Of a stretch of DNA of 64,000 nucleotides, positions 1-6,578 are shown one piece after another. The DNA lies in assembly GCA_965198065.1 (NCBI GenBank), contig CBDAON010000004.1:576001-640000 (forward strand), read 5' to 3'. This DNA comes from Longimicrobiales bacterium (GTDB lineage Bacteria; Gemmatimonadota; Gemmatimonadetes; Longimicrobiales; Gaopeijiaceae). The position numbers and the translations under genes were made by a program. Each line of letters opens with the position of its first letter. Positions within the stretch are counted from its first letter, which is position 1. Below the pieces are notes generated by a model. It was not told where the DNA came from and made no database searches. It was given only the letters and a program-made list of their open reading frames with translations.

Positions 1-42
1 AGATATTGTTCATGTTCGTCACGTCGTCTGGAGTCATCAGGT

Positions 43-1197
43 TCAGAATCCCAGGGCCCACTCGACGAAGAGGCCGTCCGGCCGATCCGCTTCCCAGTGG
101 TACGCGACCTTCACCGGCACCGAGGGAGTCATCCAGTAGTTCAGGCCGAGGGCCAGCTGCTTCCGTCGGGGAATGAGCTCGCCCTGGCCGGCGACCGCGC
201 GGGGGAGGTGGGACCATCGGACGACGGGCTCCCAGGGGCTCGACATCCGCCGGCTCAACTGAACGTAATAGCCGCCGTAGTCCACCTTCTCCACGGCTCC
301 GTCCAGGAGATACTCTTGGACGAGGACCATGCCCTCTCCCTTCAGCTGGAAGAGCGGCTCCGGGCCCGACCCGGGCGCCCACACGATTCCCAGGTTGAGC
401 GCGGAAACCGTCAGATCGCCGTCCGGGTCGTAGGCTGCCCGAAAGCCCGTGCCCTGTACGGTCAAGCCCGTTGCGGACACCGCCCGCAGCGCGAGCCCCA
501 GCATCTTGTCCGTGTTGTTGTCCTCGTAATTCGAGCCGTAGACGAGAAGGGGGGCGTCGGCTTCGGACTCGGGGTCCCCCTCGTCCTCGGCACCGTCGTG
601 CGCATGCCCCCCCCCGGAAGAGCCTACCGGACCCTGACTGACCCAGAGGGATGCGGAGGTGCGCCAACCCTCCAGGAGGGGGATCGTCCACGTGGCCATG
701 GCGCCCAGATCGAAGATGATCGGGATGAGCGCGTTGGCAGCCGCTTCCCCATGGGTATCCTCGTAGAGCAGCGGCGGGGTCGGCATCTTGTTCGTCCAGT
801 TCGTGTGCATCCACAGGCCCACAGGGAGATGGAACTTCCCCGTGACGAACTGGAGCCGCTCGAAGCCATGGTAGCGGGCTTCCACGTGCTCCAGCCCGAT
901 TAGCGTTTCGTTTCCGTGGAGCCCGGCCTCGACCTCGGCTTCCATGAACACGTCTTCCGTGATCCAGGCGAGCGGCACGAGTGACAGGAGCCCCGTGAAA
1001 TCGCTCCGGCGCTCGTCCGCCCCGATGGTCGTGGAGTAGCCCACGGCCGCATACCCGGTCAGGATCGTCCGAACGGTCGGAGCCTCCTGGGCGAATGCGA
1101 GGAGGGGAGTGAGGACCGCCGAGGTGAAGCAAACGACAAGGGGTCGAAGCGCCCTCGATCTCGCGCTCCTCGGCCGCGGGCGACGTTTGAAGATCAT
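43..1197 (-). CDS. Outer-membrane beta-barrel (porin-like) protein with His-rich loop
   Basis: Within ORF 43..1716. ATG at 1197 has a GGAG SD. Signal peptide ends in AFA, amphipathic beta-strands, terminal Phe (VEWALGF), GGGHAHDG loop. Confidence 0.7.
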   Translation of the reverse strand: MIFKRRPRPRSARSRALRPLVVCFTSAVLTPLLAFAQEAPTVRTILTGYAAVGYSTTIGADERRSDFTGLLSLVPLAWITEDVFMEAEVEAGLHGNETLIGLEHVEARYHGFERLQFVTGKFHLPVGLWMHTNWTNKMPTPPLLYEDTHGEAAANALIPIIFDLGAMATWTIPLLEGWRTSASLWVSQGPVGSSGGGHAHDGAEDEGDPESEADAPLLVYGSNYEDNNTDKMLGLALRAVSATGLTVQGTGFRAAYDPDGDLTVSALNLGIVWAPGSGPEPLFQLKGEGMVLVQEYLLDGAVEKVDYGGYYVQLSRRMSSPWEPVVRWSHLPRAVAGQGELIPRRKQLALGLNYWMTPSVPVKVAYHWEADRPDGLFVEWALGF

Positions 1198-1327
1198 GTT
1201 TCGCTCCAGTCTGGATTGAGACGTTCGCTCAGTGCTCATGGGACACGGAGGTCGTGAACCTTGCCGCTTGGGGCTGTAAGCCGTCCTACGGAGTCCTACG
1301 TCGACCGGAGGCCGGCCTCGATGAGCT

Positions 1328-1762
1328 TCAGGCGGAGCGGGGAGGGGCGTTCGGAAGGTGGAGCTCGAAGGGGGCGTGACGGGGACCGATGAAGGCAGTG
1401 CTAGTGTCGATCGGTCCGGCTGTGAAGGAGAACAGAGAGGGCTCCGACTGAGCGGAGTGTCCCGAAAGGGCCCCCAGGTGATTGCCGGTGGCGACAGGGC
1501 AGTCGCCCATGCAGCCGCCGGGGGCTCCCGAGTGATCGTGCTCGTGGGTCGACGGGCCCGCGAGCGGCCCGTGGCTGGAAGCGTGATCGGAGGAGTGATC
1601 GTGAGATCCGGACGACAACGGCGCGGGCGGGGCCGGCCCCGGAACGCCGTCGTGGACCAGGCAATGCCCCACCCCGAAGGCCTGCCCCTGGGCCATCGTG
1701 AGGAACACGGCGGCAAAGAAAACAGCGGACGTGCGCCGTACGAAAGTGACTTCGCTAATCAT
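1328..1762 (-). CDS. His/Cys-rich exported small protein, DUF2946-like putative leader/arrest peptide
   Basis: Hydrophobic N-terminus, HCLVH, His-rich tract, CMGDC, C-terminal LPNAPP. Start could alternatively be GTG 1789. Confidence 0.6.
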   Translation of the reverse strand: MISEVTFVRRTSAVFFAAVFLTMAQGQAFGVGHCLVHDGVPGPAPPAPLSSGSHDHSSDHASSHGPLAGPSTHEHDHSGAPGGCMGDCPVATGNHLGALSGHSAQSEPSLFSFTAGPIDTSTAFIGPRHAPFELHLPNAPPRSA

Positions 1763-1807
1763 CCCAGATCCCAAAGTCGTTCTTGCCACTCCATCGGAGG
1801 ATGGTTG

Positions 1808-1836
1808 ATCATACTAGCGAGGTTGCGCCCGATCAA
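1808..1836 (-). promoter_or_regulatory. Sigma70-type promoter for leader protein/porin operon
   Basis: TTGATC-N17-TATGAT on minus strand. Confidence 0.5.
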
Positions 1837-1908
1837 CCCGAAGGGGAACCGACCGCCGACCGGTCTGGTGGTGCCAACAGACATCATCTGATATTGAACC
1901 CTCTACAA

Positions 1909-1948
1909 CGAGGTCAGGTCAATAAAGTGTGTAAACGGCATTAGGCGG
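1909..1948 (+). repeat. Left copy of ~40-bp direct repeat (putative recombination site)
   Basis: CGAGGTCAGGTCAA-TAAAGTG-TGTAAACGGCATTAGGCGG; 31/40 identical to 3755..3794. Confidence 0.75.
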
Positions 1949-1986
1949 CGATCCTCTCGGAGACTCCGGAGTTGCACCACGGACTG

Positions 1987-2475
1987 CTATGGGCTCACGC
2001 GGCCATCCGAGGCGACGGTGAAGCCCAACCCAGAGGCCGGGGGGTCCGTGCCCGACACCGATTGCACATCAGTGAGAGGGACGTCGTTGGCGAAGACGTT
2101 CTGGGTCACTGAAGCGGTCTGATCTCGATCGCACAGATTCGGATCAGTGATGAGAACCAGGTGGCGCACGTCCGGTGGCACATCGAACGTCGCCTCCCAT
2201 CGATCGCTACCGACCGGGACCATGTTGAACGGCTGGTAGTTGAGCCAGCTTACGTGCATATGCGTGGGCGACTCGTCTCGCACGCAGGCGAGCTCCGACA
2301 ACGAAAAATCCGTACGCAGGACCGTCGACGCCAGGTACACGATCCTCACCGCGACTGCGCCTGATCCGCCTCCGCCTGGCGGAGTCGCAGCAGAGGGTTC
2401 CGACCCACCACAGCACGCCACCATCGCGGTCGCGATCGGTCCTACCAACCAAGTACGCAGCCTCACGCTTGACAA
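1987..2475 (-). CDS. Hypothetical lipoprotein
   Basis: Within ORF 1987..2661. TTG start downstream of GGAGG (start uncertain), lipobox-like MVA-C, Gly/Pro linker, beta-rich domain. Confidence 0.55.
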   Translation of the reverse strand: MSSVRLRTWLVGPIATAMVACCGGSEPSAATPPGGGGSGAVAVRIVYLASTVLRTDFSLSELACVRDESPTHMHVSWLNYQPFNMVPVGSDRWEATFDVPPDVRHLVLITDPNLCDRDQTASVTQNVFANDVPLTDVQSVSGTDPPASGLGFTVASDGRVSP

Positions 2476-2497
2476 ATTAGCAAACACCTCCCCGAAT

Positions 2498-2542
2498 ACG
2501 GTAGAACATTGAGTACGGTAGAAGATTACACGGTAGAACATT
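2498..2542 (+). repeat. Three direct repeats ACGGTAGAA(C/G)ATT
   Basis: Copies start at 2498, 2515 and 2530, between divergent genes. Confidence 0.85.
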
Positions 2543-2553
2543 ACTTGGTCCGG

Positions 2554-3780
2554 ATGTCGATGAAGTTTTCTGCTGTCTGCACGCTCGGGCTGCTGGTGCC
2601 GCTTCCGTGCGCGATGCTCTTCGCGGCGGATCGGGCGGCGGCACAGGAACAGCCGCAACAAGAGCAGCTACCGCCGACCGATGGATGGCAGTGGTCGGTC
2701 GACGCAAATGTCTTCTTCGGCCTCAACTATCAGCACCGCCGGTTCATCAACATCCGCGAGGTAAAGCGCGAGGTCGAATCGCAGAACTGGTTGATGACGA
2801 TGGCATCCCGCACGGCCGGTCGAGGCACCCTGACCTTCCGTTCGACGTTCTCGTTCGAGCCGTTCACCATGCGTGCTATGGGCTCACCTCAGCTCCTCCA
2901 GACCGGCGAGACATTCAAGAACCGGCGATTGATCGACTACCAACACCCTCACGATTTGTTCATGGCCCTCGGGTCTGAATACCGCCGGCCAGTGGACGAC
3001 TGGATGGTGCGGGTCGGTGTTGACCTCGTCGGCGCCCCGTCCATTGGCCCGACTGTGTTCATGCACCGGCCCTCGGCCGCGGAAAATCCGCAGGCCACGC
3101 TCGGCCACCACAATATGGATGCGACCCACATCACGCACGGCGTCGTCAAAGCCGGGGTGGAGCGGGGGATCGTGGGGTTCGAGGTGTCCTGGTTTCAGGG
3201 GCGCGAGCCCGACGAGGATCGGATCGGGTTGGATCTAGACGCGCCGGACTCGTGGGCCGCTCGGCTGTCGTGGACGATCGGCCCGTGGTCTGCGCAGGTG
3301 TCCAGCGCGTGGCTTAACGAGCCCGAGCCACTCGAGCCGGGCGACGTGACCCGACTCACGGCGTCGGTCGGCTACACGCGCACCTCGGGGGACCGCTCGA
3401 CCGCCATCTTGGTGGCGTGGGGTCAGAACCGTGAGCTGTTCGGCGTCTTCGATGCCTACGTCGCGGAGGCAACGATTCGGCCCAACGCGAAAAACGCGTT
3501 CTACGGCCGGGCCGAGGTGGTTGACAAGAGCATCCTTGGAGGCGGGGTCCACATCCCCGGGGTCGTCCACCGGCATCCGGAGTCCCGAGTCGGTGCGTTT
3601 ACCGTCGGGTACGTGCGCGACCTCGTGGTTGGCCGGTACGGCCGGTTGGGACTCGGAGCCGATGTCACGCGCTATCGGATAGCCGAGGACCTGAAGTTCC
3701 TCTACGGGTCACCCCGCTCCTACCACGTGTTTCTTCGGTATCGGCCAGAGCGCTCGATGTCAGGTCAAATGGATATGTAA
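2554..3780 (+). CDS. Outer-membrane beta-barrel protein with His motifs (putative metal-related)
   Basis: Signal peptide ending AAA-Q; QHPHDLFM, GHHNMD and HITHG motifs; amphipathic strands. Confidence 0.7.
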   Translation: MSMKFSAVCTLGLLVPLPCAMLFAADRAAAQEQPQQEQLPPTDGWQWSVDANVFFGLNYQHRRFINIREVKREVESQNWLMTMASRTAGRGTLTFRSTFSFEPFTMRAMGSPQLLQTGETFKNRRLIDYQHPHDLFMALGSEYRRPVDDWMVRVGVDLVGAPSIGPTVFMHRPSAAENPQATLGHHNMDATHITHGVVKAGVERGIVGFEVSWFQGREPDEDRIGLDLDAPDSWAARLSWTIGPWSAQVSSAWLNEPEPLEPGDVTRLTASVGYTRTSGDRSTAILVAWGQNRELFGVFDAYVAEATIRPNAKNAFYGRAEVVDKSILGGGVHIPGVVHRHPESRVGAFTVGYVRDLVVGRYGRLGLGADVTRYRIAEDLKFLYGSPRSYHVFLRYRPERSMSGQMDM

Positions 3781-3794
3781 ACGGCATCGGGCGG
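3755..3794 (+). repeat. Right copy of ~40-bp direct repeat (putative recombination site)
   Basis: CGATGTCAGGTCAA-ATGGATA-TGTAAACGGCATCGGGCGG; contains the TAA stop of the upstream CDS. Confidence 0.75.
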
Positions 3795-3966
3795 GGGGAC
3801 CCCTTGGCTTCTTTCAGCACGGCGGTGGCTCCTCTCGTTGCGGGCACGAGGCCCGTGGTTGATTGGTCAACCGAAAGGCGTCACCGCCTTCCGCCTGTTT
3901 ACACACCCTCTGAAGCTACCTGAACTGCCCATGAAGTATTTGTTGACAAAACCAGAACATTTTGGC

Positions 3967-4001
3967 AAGAAAATCGGCCTCCCGAGCGAACCAGAGAGGC
4001 C
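3967..4001 (-). terminator. Intrinsic terminator after tRNA
   Basis: Minus strand GGCCTCTC...GGGAGGCC stem followed by GATTTTCTT. Confidence 0.55.
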
Positions 4002-4023
4002 TACAACCCTTGTCCCTACTGGA

Positions 4024-4097
4024 TGCCGGAGGAGGGACTCGAACCCCCGACACGCGGATTATGATTCCGCTGCTCTAACCAGCTGAGCTACTCCGGC
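4024..4097 (-). tRNA. tRNA-Met (CAT), elongator type
   Basis: GCCGGAGTAGCTCAGCTGGTTAGAGCA-GCGGA-ATCATAA-TCCGC...GGTTCGAGTCC...CCGGCA cloverleaf; G1-C72 paired so not initiator; CCA not encoded; Ile2 not strictly excluded. Confidence 0.93.
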
Positions 4098-4108
4098 GAG
4101 GGAAGAAA

Positions 4109-4133
4109 ACGCTACCCGCCGGCGGGGAGGGTG

Positions 4134-4137
<4 letters not shown>
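4109..4137 (-). promoter_or_regulatory. Sigma70 promoter of tRNA
   Basis: TTGACA-N17-TAGCGT immediately upstream of the tRNA. Confidence 0.65.

Positions 4138-6578
<2,441 letters not shown>

Follow-up and report, generated by a model that had tools for sequence, protein, structure and literature searches.

Two copper-responsive leader peptides are the closest described counterparts of the locus treated here. CruR (Bp2923) from Bordetella pertussis is a 145-aa protein of the DUF2946 family (PF11162) and the leader of cruR-bfrG-bp2921. It combines an export signal with a CXXC motif at residues 90-93 and a RAPP motif at residues 139-142, three residues from its end, and is followed by a 162-nt spacer and the gene of a TonB-dependent transporter (PMC9426467). 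The 45-residue interval between CXXC and RAPP is kept across more than 2000 DUF2946 members, and RAPP is reportedly written in frequent codons (PMC9426467). The arrest is relieved by copper, after which transcription is ended by Rho (PMC9426467), and it was demonstrated in vitro in a further study (PMC12992588). CutF from Rhodobacter capsulatus (cutFOG) is a protein with a Sec signal, a CxxxC motif and, after 45 residues, the Pro-rich end P109EPEGPPPRL118 (PMC9973294). Here, copper lengthens an EF-P-sensitive stall, whereby a stem-loop over the cutO Shine-Dalgarno (SD) sequence melts (PMC9973294; 10.1101/2025.02.05.636593). In this work, we analyse a locus of related architecture in a 64,000-nt stretch from a Longimicrobiales bacterium (Gemmatimonadota; assembly GCA_965198065.1, contig CBDAON010000004.1, positions 576,001 to 640,000), referred to as the window, in which the leader gene P0001, encoding a small Cys/His-rich protein, precedes P0002, a gene for a porin-like beta-barrel. 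Judged by its sequence, the leader is CruR/CutF-like in architecture and context, but it is neither a demonstrable member of DUF2946 nor a RAPP-type arrest peptide. We consider it rather probable that it is an Arg-less, EF-P-sensitive APP pausing leader that senses metal via its Cys/His clusters and gates expression of the porin.

Promoter, leader, spacer and porin gene all lie on the minus strand and are given in window numbering. A sigma-70-type promoter-like site (TTGATC-17-TATGAT, 1808..1836) is one of three such sites found in 2.6 kb, as compared with 0.5 expected from shuffles, and is kept as TTGATC-17-TATAAT in L057, a metagenome relative whose leader is 78% identical to that of the window; upstream of the promoter the two sequences have diverged (30/64 identical), while the promoter itself is conserved. 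The leader gene P0001 (1328..1762; ATG 1762, TGA 1330-1328) comprises 144 codons plus TGA. Its product starts with a hydrophobic helix at residues 7-28 (1679..1744), with R9R10 nearby, which is a predicted export signal or membrane anchor. This is followed by H33-C-L-V-H37 (1652..1666), a His-rich tract (H54, 56, 60, 64, 73, 75 and 77; 1532..1603) and C84-M-G-D-C88 (1499..1513), the latter with 49 residues to N138. The C-terminal block P127-RHAPFELHLPNAPP141 (1340..1384) contains the NAPP codons AAC GCC CCT CCC (1351-1340) and is succeeded by the tail CGC TCC GCC (R-S-A) and TGA (1328..1339). In the model, which was built on a 116-row alignment, the single helix 7-28 is flanked by coil elsewhere (mean pLDDT 67.5), and the mature part of the leader is predicted to be disordered. 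A spacer of 130 nt (1198..1327) includes GGAGCG (1202..1207; GGAGCA in L057), with the SD element GGAG, 6 nt 5' of ATG 1197. This ATG opens P0002 (43..1197; TGA 45-43), which encodes a 384-aa, porin-like 16-strand beta-barrel with a GGGHAHDG loop. Between the window and L057, 377/432 positions of the leader coding sequence are identical; in the spacer, two conserved blocks, one of the first 71 nt past the stop region (62/71 identical) and one of 38 nt 5' of the porin ATG (one base differs), surround an indel of about 97 nt. A sequence-only reading of this DNA had described a promoter, a Cys/His leader of about 145 aa ending in LPNAPPRSA, a gap of 130 nt and a His-loop barrel, all of which are indeed present.

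Neither the leader nor the porin has a match at E<=1 in Pfam and NCBIfam, and a cluster look-up returned no names other than 'hypothetical protein'. A word-indexed search with the single leader sequence yielded three relatives of 90, 72 and 39% identity, and a single-sequence search over genomes gave matches in 4/41, two of the four being weak. A partial copy in G003, a family-level relative, is followed by a gene for a TonB-dependent receptor. In an alignment of five leaders (31-90% identity), H77, C84, C88 and the block PRHxPFELHLPNAPP are all invariant. With a search profile built from these five, 127 proteins were retrieved from 1.84 billion representatives at E<=1e-3, 17 of them at E<=1e-10; most have 120-170 aa and align end to end. 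The family alignment comprises 116 of 129 sequences, as fragments, proteins of more than 180 aa and sequences lacking the C-terminal end were left out (P0153, 161, 164, 168, 169, 185, 211, 215, 220, 223, 227, 231 and 236). In its consensus, a signal-like N-terminus leads into DAxGxHxCPHHD, after which come a linker rich in His, GPCTCxGxC and finally ...PRxxPxxLPxxNAPPxxx, and C34, H37, P140 and P141 are invariant throughout; the family consensus is HxCPHHD at HCLVH of P0001 and C-T-C-x-G-x-C at its CMGDC. At E<=1e-4, the family profile has matches in 161/401 sampled Gemmatimonadota genomes (~40%), with one match in the genome of the window. By these sequence criteria, the leader belongs to a large and as yet unnamed family of putatively exported Cys/His-rich leader peptides in the Gemmatimonadota. 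A scan of genome contigs with the back-translated motif returned five stretches, of which only L006 from a Longimicrobiales metagenome-assembled genome is a true family member; the other four were rejected as chance matches or wrong frames. A scan of metagenomes gave one locus from 61 pattern matches. At two loci, L042 (G281) and G373:C114, two family leader genes stand in tandem or less than 5 kb apart before one receptor gene. No publication on a Gemmatimonadota leader with NAPP or without Arg turned up in a literature search, and the family may already be among the 29 clusters listed for the CutF-like class (PMC9973294). Neither 'Gemmatimon' nor 'NAPP' occurs in the part of the supplementary lists of PMC9973294 and PMC9426467 that was searched.

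The C-terminal motif is the hallmark of the family. As had been anticipated from the sequence of P0001 alone, a C-terminal xAPP is conserved among the homologues, since [AG]PP is found within the last 15 residues of 123/129 sequences, the remaining six being fragments or outliers; this count is partly circular, as the collecting profile contained the motif, a circularity that touches neither the absence of Arg nor the spacing or the length of the tail. The residue preceding [AG]PP is N in 81 sequences, T in 16, Q in 12, L in 6, H in 5, I in 2 and S in 1, and R or K occurs in 0/123 and likewise in 0/29 related loci that were read from genomes. A hydrophobic LP[FYW] sits upstream, so that the family motif can be written as LP[FYW]x[NTQHLIV][AG]PP. 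Exactly three residues follow PP in 88/123 sequences. CxxxC is present in 108/129 and is separated from the motif by 45-48 residues in 97/108 and by 49 residues, as in P0001, in 6/108; sorted differently, the 123 motif-bearing sequences comprise 108 with CxxxC, five with CxxC and ten with neither. A Cys motif at a CruR- or CutF-like distance from xAPP, with three residues after PP, is thus also seen in the family.

Codon choice at the motif was inspected in 35 instances from 33 loci. All four codons each of Ala, Gly and Pro are in use, and it is therefore the peptide that is conserved. Within this freedom, the first Pro codon is CCT in 18/35 and CCA in 5/35 instances, as compared with 38/471 and 31/471 Pro codons, respectively, in neighbouring genes (n=21). 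The bias of the first Pro codon (Fisher 5e-10) is overstated, since the loci are kin. The Pro-Pro codons of the window are CCT CCC, the first one being the rare CCT. As a side observation, the rare CCT, to which 8% of the Pro codons of neighbouring genes belong, creates in first position the mRNA sequence CCUCC, which is an anti-Shine-Dalgarno sequence.

The likeness to CruR extends over length (~145 aa), an export-type N-terminus, a Cys motif ~45 residues (49 in P0001) from xAPP, a three-residue tail, a long spacer and the position ahead of an outer-membrane gene, and the relatives of the leader mostly precede TonB-dependent receptors. In contrast to CruR, the leader harbors CxxxC instead of CXXC, Asn (in relatives T, Q, L or H) instead of the essential Arg, and rare instead of frequent Pro codons at the motif; the family moreover has an additional invariant HxCPHH cluster, the leader lacks a Pfam DUF2946 match, and a plug-less porin is encoded downstream at this locus. 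With CutF, the leader shares a CxxxC that precedes a C-terminal Pro motif by ~45 residues (49 in P0001), a predicted Sec-type N-terminus and, according to the mechanism proposed below, an Arg-independent, EF-P-sensitive Pro stall as well as an SD-masking RNA helix melted by the stalled ribosome. It also conforms to the operational filters given for CutF-like proteins in PMC9973294, i.e. fewer than 150 aa (144), PP in the last 15 residues (140-141) and a same-strand neighbour within less than 1000 nt (130-nt spacer). The CutF end (PEPEGPPPRL) features a PPP run, whereas the leader family has x-A/G-P-P with a fixed three-residue tail, and CutF controls a detoxifying periplasmic multicopper oxidase, whereas the leader family precedes outer-membrane barrels. 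The likeness to CutF is one of architecture only, with no sequence similarity demonstrated. Finally, the RAPP/RGPP arrest peptides (ApdA, ApdP, SecM-like) are likewise small exported proteins with a C-terminal x-A/G-P-P that are encoded upstream of a regulated gene, but the irreplaceable Arg that they carry at -3 relative to the stall site is absent here (Asn138 in the leader, 0/123 in the family).

This missing Arg shapes the mechanism that may be envisaged. In ApcA, ApdA and ApdP, arrest was abolished by all 19 substitutions of the RAP Arg (PMC12992588), and in CruR R139A (equivalent to AAPP), arrest was lost in a PURE system with EF-P. APP itself is described as an EF-P-dependent stalling tripeptide whose strength is set by the upstream context (PMC4176338). 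Without the Arg, a pause would more likely be of the EF-P-sensitive APP/GPP type, as in the case of the CutF PPP, than a shutdown of the peptidyl-transferase centre as caused by RAPP. A tunable EF-P-sensitive pause would, as we infer, be in keeping with the invariant segment upstream of the motif (ELHLP or LP[FYW]A), with the rare Pro codons and with efp being encoded in the genome. The leader would then act in cis in a CruR/CutF-like manner, its translation being paused at Ala-Pro-Pro, three codons short of the stop. Once its P and A sites hold Pro140 and Pro141, the ribosome would enclose the three-codon tail and the stop codon in its mRNA channel, and the location of these 9 nt plus stop inside the channel would explain the fixed tail length. 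At that point, 52-56 residues would connect CxxxC to the peptidyl-transferase centre, which would place the Cys cluster just outside the exit tunnel, where metal bound to the Cys/His clusters could alter the pull exerted on the nascent chain, making the pause longer or shorter. As long as the ribosome is paused, the tail codons would be kept off the porin SD region and the porin would be translated; upon normal termination, the helix would form and mask the SD, resulting in a CutF-type output. Since the barrels are importer-like, metal would be expected to relieve the pause and thus to lower expression, as in CruR. Copper is the likeliest metal, given the CxxxC motif and the copper-related genes beside homologues of the barrel, yet both the identity of the metal and the polarity of control are guesses.

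The RNA-level part of this proposal starts from a complementarity that the sequence-only reading had already pointed out, namely between the tail codons CGC UCC (1339-1334) and GGAGCG (1207-1202) in the SD region of the porin. In the minimum free energy fold of the window, the tail CGCUCCG pairs with UGGAGCG at the SD, so that the tail is predicted to form the 5' side of a helix whose other side is the porin ribosome-binding site. For 26 leader/downstream pairs of the family, the leader end (comprising [APSG]x[AG]PP, the tail and the stop) was compared with 25 nt around the SD and start codon. The resulting duplex is stronger than those of at least 75% of equally long windows of the leader coding sequence itself in 21/26 pairs and of at least 90% in 11/26, and in 14/26 its energy is attained by no more than 10% of 200 shuffles of the leader end. 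When partition-function folds begin at the leader end, the probability of pairing between SD and leader end is above 0.5 in 18/26 pairs, with a mean of 0.64 as compared with 0.27 for shuffled sequences; the corresponding values are 0.99 versus 0.49 for the window and 0.73 versus 0.15 for L057. The bases that pair vary between loci. In L057, the tail reads AAC CUG GCC and the SD region GGAGCA, so that the 6-bp match of the window is not conserved, and the predicted partners of the SD are the Pro codons.

Several results weigh against the pausing leader as proposed, or against parts of it. The pairing test is confined to pairs for which a simple rule yielded an SD and a start codon, and the duplex is superior to a control target inside the downstream gene in only 17/26 of them. 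With additional flank (90 nt upstream, or 150 nt upstream plus 60 nt), the pairing probability of the window drops from 0.99 to 0.66 and then to 0.00, and in the family values above 0.5 are retained in 12/26 pairs. The spacer fold of the window is no more stable than its shuffles (z +0.58), and that of L057 is not unusually stable either (z -1.76). Pairing of the leader end with the next gene's ribosome-binding site is thus a family-wide tendency that is not robust for this window: the six complementary bases that had been noted do exist, but they are not kept in L057, and the pairing of the window vanishes with longer flanks. A second group of results concerns descent. The DUF2946 hidden Markov model (HMM), proposed as a check in the earlier reading, has no match to P0001 at E<=1 and only weak matches in 14 of 116 relatives (best 7e-5). 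A comparison of the family with six local DUF2946 members by hhalign reached a probability of 11.8% over the signal peptide only, and the family HMM scores these six members with at most 11.4 bits; profile comparisons are hence not significant, and homology of the leader to DUF2946 is, at the level of sequence profiles, not demonstrated. Searching the genome of the window with PF11162 gave nothing at E<=0.01, while classical DUF2946 members with CxxC...RAPP/RGPP+3 were found in 10/41 related genomes at E<=0.01, two of them over the cut-off. Language-model neighbours of the leader are unnamed Gemmatimonadota clusters (0.96), followed by DUF2946/DUF6769/CzcI clusters (0.94), and the nearest named clusters contain DUF2946 or CzcI in 12-100% of their members; both observations serve as a lead only. 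Lastly, besides the partial circularity of the motif count, the Arg mutagenesis of ApcA, ApdA, ApdP and CruR suggests by analogy that an Arg-less motif may pause only weakly, and the idea that NAPP is a variant of the RAPP arrest motif conflicts with these data (PMC12992588; CruR R139A).

The genes downstream of the leaders were inspected in the 29 best-scoring loci besides that of the window, with flanks of 1.5 kb; the frames of eight of them were set by GC content at third codon positions (GC3). The next same-strand gene encodes a TonB receptor with Plug domain at 20 loci, a barrel of ~355 aa at seven, a BBP2/Porin_O_P porin at one and an AhpC/TSA redoxin at one. An outer-membrane barrel gene is therefore next in 28/29 loci, with 20 TonB receptors and eight plug-less barrels, and the TonB receptors often carry a CarboxypepD_reg N-terminus. 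A plug-less barrel in place of a TonB receptor, which the sequence-only reading had emphasised, is hence correct for the window itself, but is not the rule among its relatives. The ~355-aa barrel-like proteins (L033, L036, L043, L046, L051, L053 and L054) are mutually 40-84% identical, their lone Pfam match being a weak one to Phenol_MetA_deg (23.5 bits), and may represent another unannotated metal-related barrel. Their sequences start with ...QYEWTSSRPDGHAPIGVMGEHTHExGEFMxSYRF.

For P0002, the AlphaFold2 model is a 16-strand barrel (pLDDT 89.9, pTM 0.83), and Foldseek ranks OmpU, OmpF, PorB and Omp32 highest among PDB entries (lowest E 1.3e-11; TM 0.5-0.6). Of 114 homologues at E<=1e-3, 11 have a precomputed assignment to PF07396 (Porin_O_P), while P0002 itself is without a Pfam match. 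The invariant H131 and the nearly invariant H149 are located in a long loop and the likewise nearly invariant H200 in an HxH loop, and the HAH loop falls into a low-confidence stretch of the model (about residues 190-215). Barrels of this type occur in 6/151 genomes of the order, of which only two also have the leader. In G104, a distant leader (...CTCIGAC...LFPFPNAPPPQA-stop) stands ahead of a barrel with 56% identity, whereas in the remaining four barrel-containing genomes the upstream open reading frames (ORFs) resemble, by eye, CopD, cupredoxin and cytochrome-c/thioredoxin proteins. An alternative in-frame ATG lies 14 codons 5' of the porin start (1239-1197, minus strand; MSTERTSQSRLERN-MIFK...) and lacks an SD. 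It falls into the 38-nt block that is near-identical in L057, and the lengths of homologues favour ATG 1197.

The strongest competitor of the pausing leader, although an unlikely one, holds that the small protein itself is the functional product, i.e. a periplasmic protein, either secreted or anchored, that binds metal, for instance as a metallochaperone or as a partner of the barrel, and in which LPxxNAPPxxx serves as a docking, sorting or processing signal; its action would be post-translational. The export-type N-terminus, the invariant Cys and His residues, the hydrophobic LP[FYW] ahead of the motif and the location beside outer-membrane protein genes (28/29 loci) would be expected for such a protein, and the absence of the Arg needed for RAPP arrest also speaks for it. 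Yet the mature part is predicted, with low confidence, to be coil, and it is hard to explain for a docking tag why its distance from CxxxC should be held within four residues and why it should end three residues from the stop as in CruR. The preference for rare Pro codons at the motif and the complementarity of the last leader codons with the next gene's ribosome-binding site likewise speak against it, and the language-model neighbours, as a lead only, are DUF2946/CzcI-type leaders.

If, on the other hand, regulation by translation is accepted, it could in principle follow CruR in full. In that scenario, a hard, EF-P-refractory arrest at xAPP would shield the spacer from Rho and let transcription continue into the porin gene, metal would relieve the arrest, Rho would then terminate transcription, and pairing at the SD would be irrelevant. 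Length, spacing, the three-residue tail and the long spacer match CruR, rho is encoded in the genome along with efp, no intrinsic terminator was detected in the spacer by a terminator scan (terminator-like sites in the leader coding sequence are at chance level, with 2 versus 1.4 expected), an Rfam search of 1-4200 found no family except for one tRNA and none in the spacer, and the spacer fold is, as described above, not unusually stable. A full switch of this kind nevertheless appears quite improbable. The Arg that is absent here was required for hard arrest in every tested case, the spacers of the family range from 13 to 286 nt, some being too short for Rho loading, and the family-wide complementarity between tail and ribosome-binding site would be left unexplained.

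Comparison with a sister strain (contigs of four runs over 1100-1900) revealed 20-27 substitutions, all in 1404-1815, plus one at 1176 in a single run, while one indel each at 1336 and 1353, seen in a single contig at a depth of less than 6, could reflect errors. No substitution was found in 1177-1403, but this was not used as evidence of constraint, since the contigs are unlike beyond 1845, which indicates a possible recombination boundary. That the leader is a decaying or neutral family member without any regulatory role at this locus, with the porin being expressed independently, seems highly improbable. Its fast-evolving middle (78% identity to L057, and the 20-27 substitutions in the sister strain) and its presence in only two of the six barrel-positive genomes among the 151 searched speak for this reading, but its frame is intact with all family hallmarks kept, the promoter is conserved in L057, and the sister strain has no substitution in the spacer or in the final 25 codons of the leader, although the latter could equally reflect a recombination boundary.

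The surroundings of the locus are in line with a metal context, as the sequence-only reading had presumed. Past the left edge of the window (L058), the minus strand continues with two small ORFs 3' of the porin gene, neither of which has a Pfam match, and which may belong to the same operon as the porin. One of them (L058:7657-8061 plus window 1-61, minus strand) features a Tat-like RRRF, a lipobox-like LLGGC and a CxxCH haem-type motif, and the other one (L058:6896-7381, minus strand) is lipoprotein-like with C-RAAS-CH. Convergent with them lies an operon for an OEP protein, a CzcB-type adaptor and a CusA-CzcA-type RND pump, the pump gene being located 1.3 kb past the barrel (TIGR00914, 826.5 bits versus a cut-off of 701). 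This operon is headed by a leader of its own, a 130-aa protein with His but no Cys (HHH...DHHSHG) and the end PRAPPHLS-stop, encoded on the plus strand at L058:299-691 (G000:C4:568299-568691), ~7.3 kb to the left of the window. Relatives of this His-only leader were found in 3/60 other genomes, where all of them end in [A/S]PRAPP plus three residues and precede an OEP-like gene. An exporter headed by a canonical RAPP+3 leader and a porin headed by an NAPP+3 leader are therefore encoded in one genome. On the other side of the locus, a divergent ORF of 423 aa (window 2509-3780, plus strand) has a signal-like N-terminus and no family match, a lipoprotein-like ORF of 224 aa (1987-2661, minus strand) overlaps its start, and a tRNA gene follows at 4024-4097 (minus strand; Rfam RF00005, 67 bits).

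On a more speculative note, the Gemmatimonadota could possess a phylum-wide second class of metal-sensing leaders. Such leaders would pause without Arg by means of Ala/Gly-Pro-Pro with rare Pro codons and an LPF/ELHLP tunnel segment, and their three-codon tail would serve as an anti-Shine-Dalgarno arm, with the RAPP (Czc-type exporter) and NAPP (porin) chemistries providing opposite or differently tuned control of efflux and influx. We put this forward tentatively, as one possibility among others and with clearly less confidence than the pausing leader at the window itself.

Research on ribosome-arrest leaders has focused on RAPP/RGPP, the latest proteome-wide survey took only these two motifs into account (PMC12992588), and surveys of this kind would miss a leader family that is found in ~40% of the sampled Gemmatimonadota genomes. 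The locus also marks an uncharacterised porin family with conserved His residues in its pore loops, which is a candidate for a TonB-independent metal channel. If the peptides do pause ribosomes, they would reveal which parts of the RAPP mechanism are dispensable, would constitute a natural test of EF-P-sensitive versus EF-P-refractory sensing, and would provide a function for many unannotated first genes of outer-membrane uptake operons.

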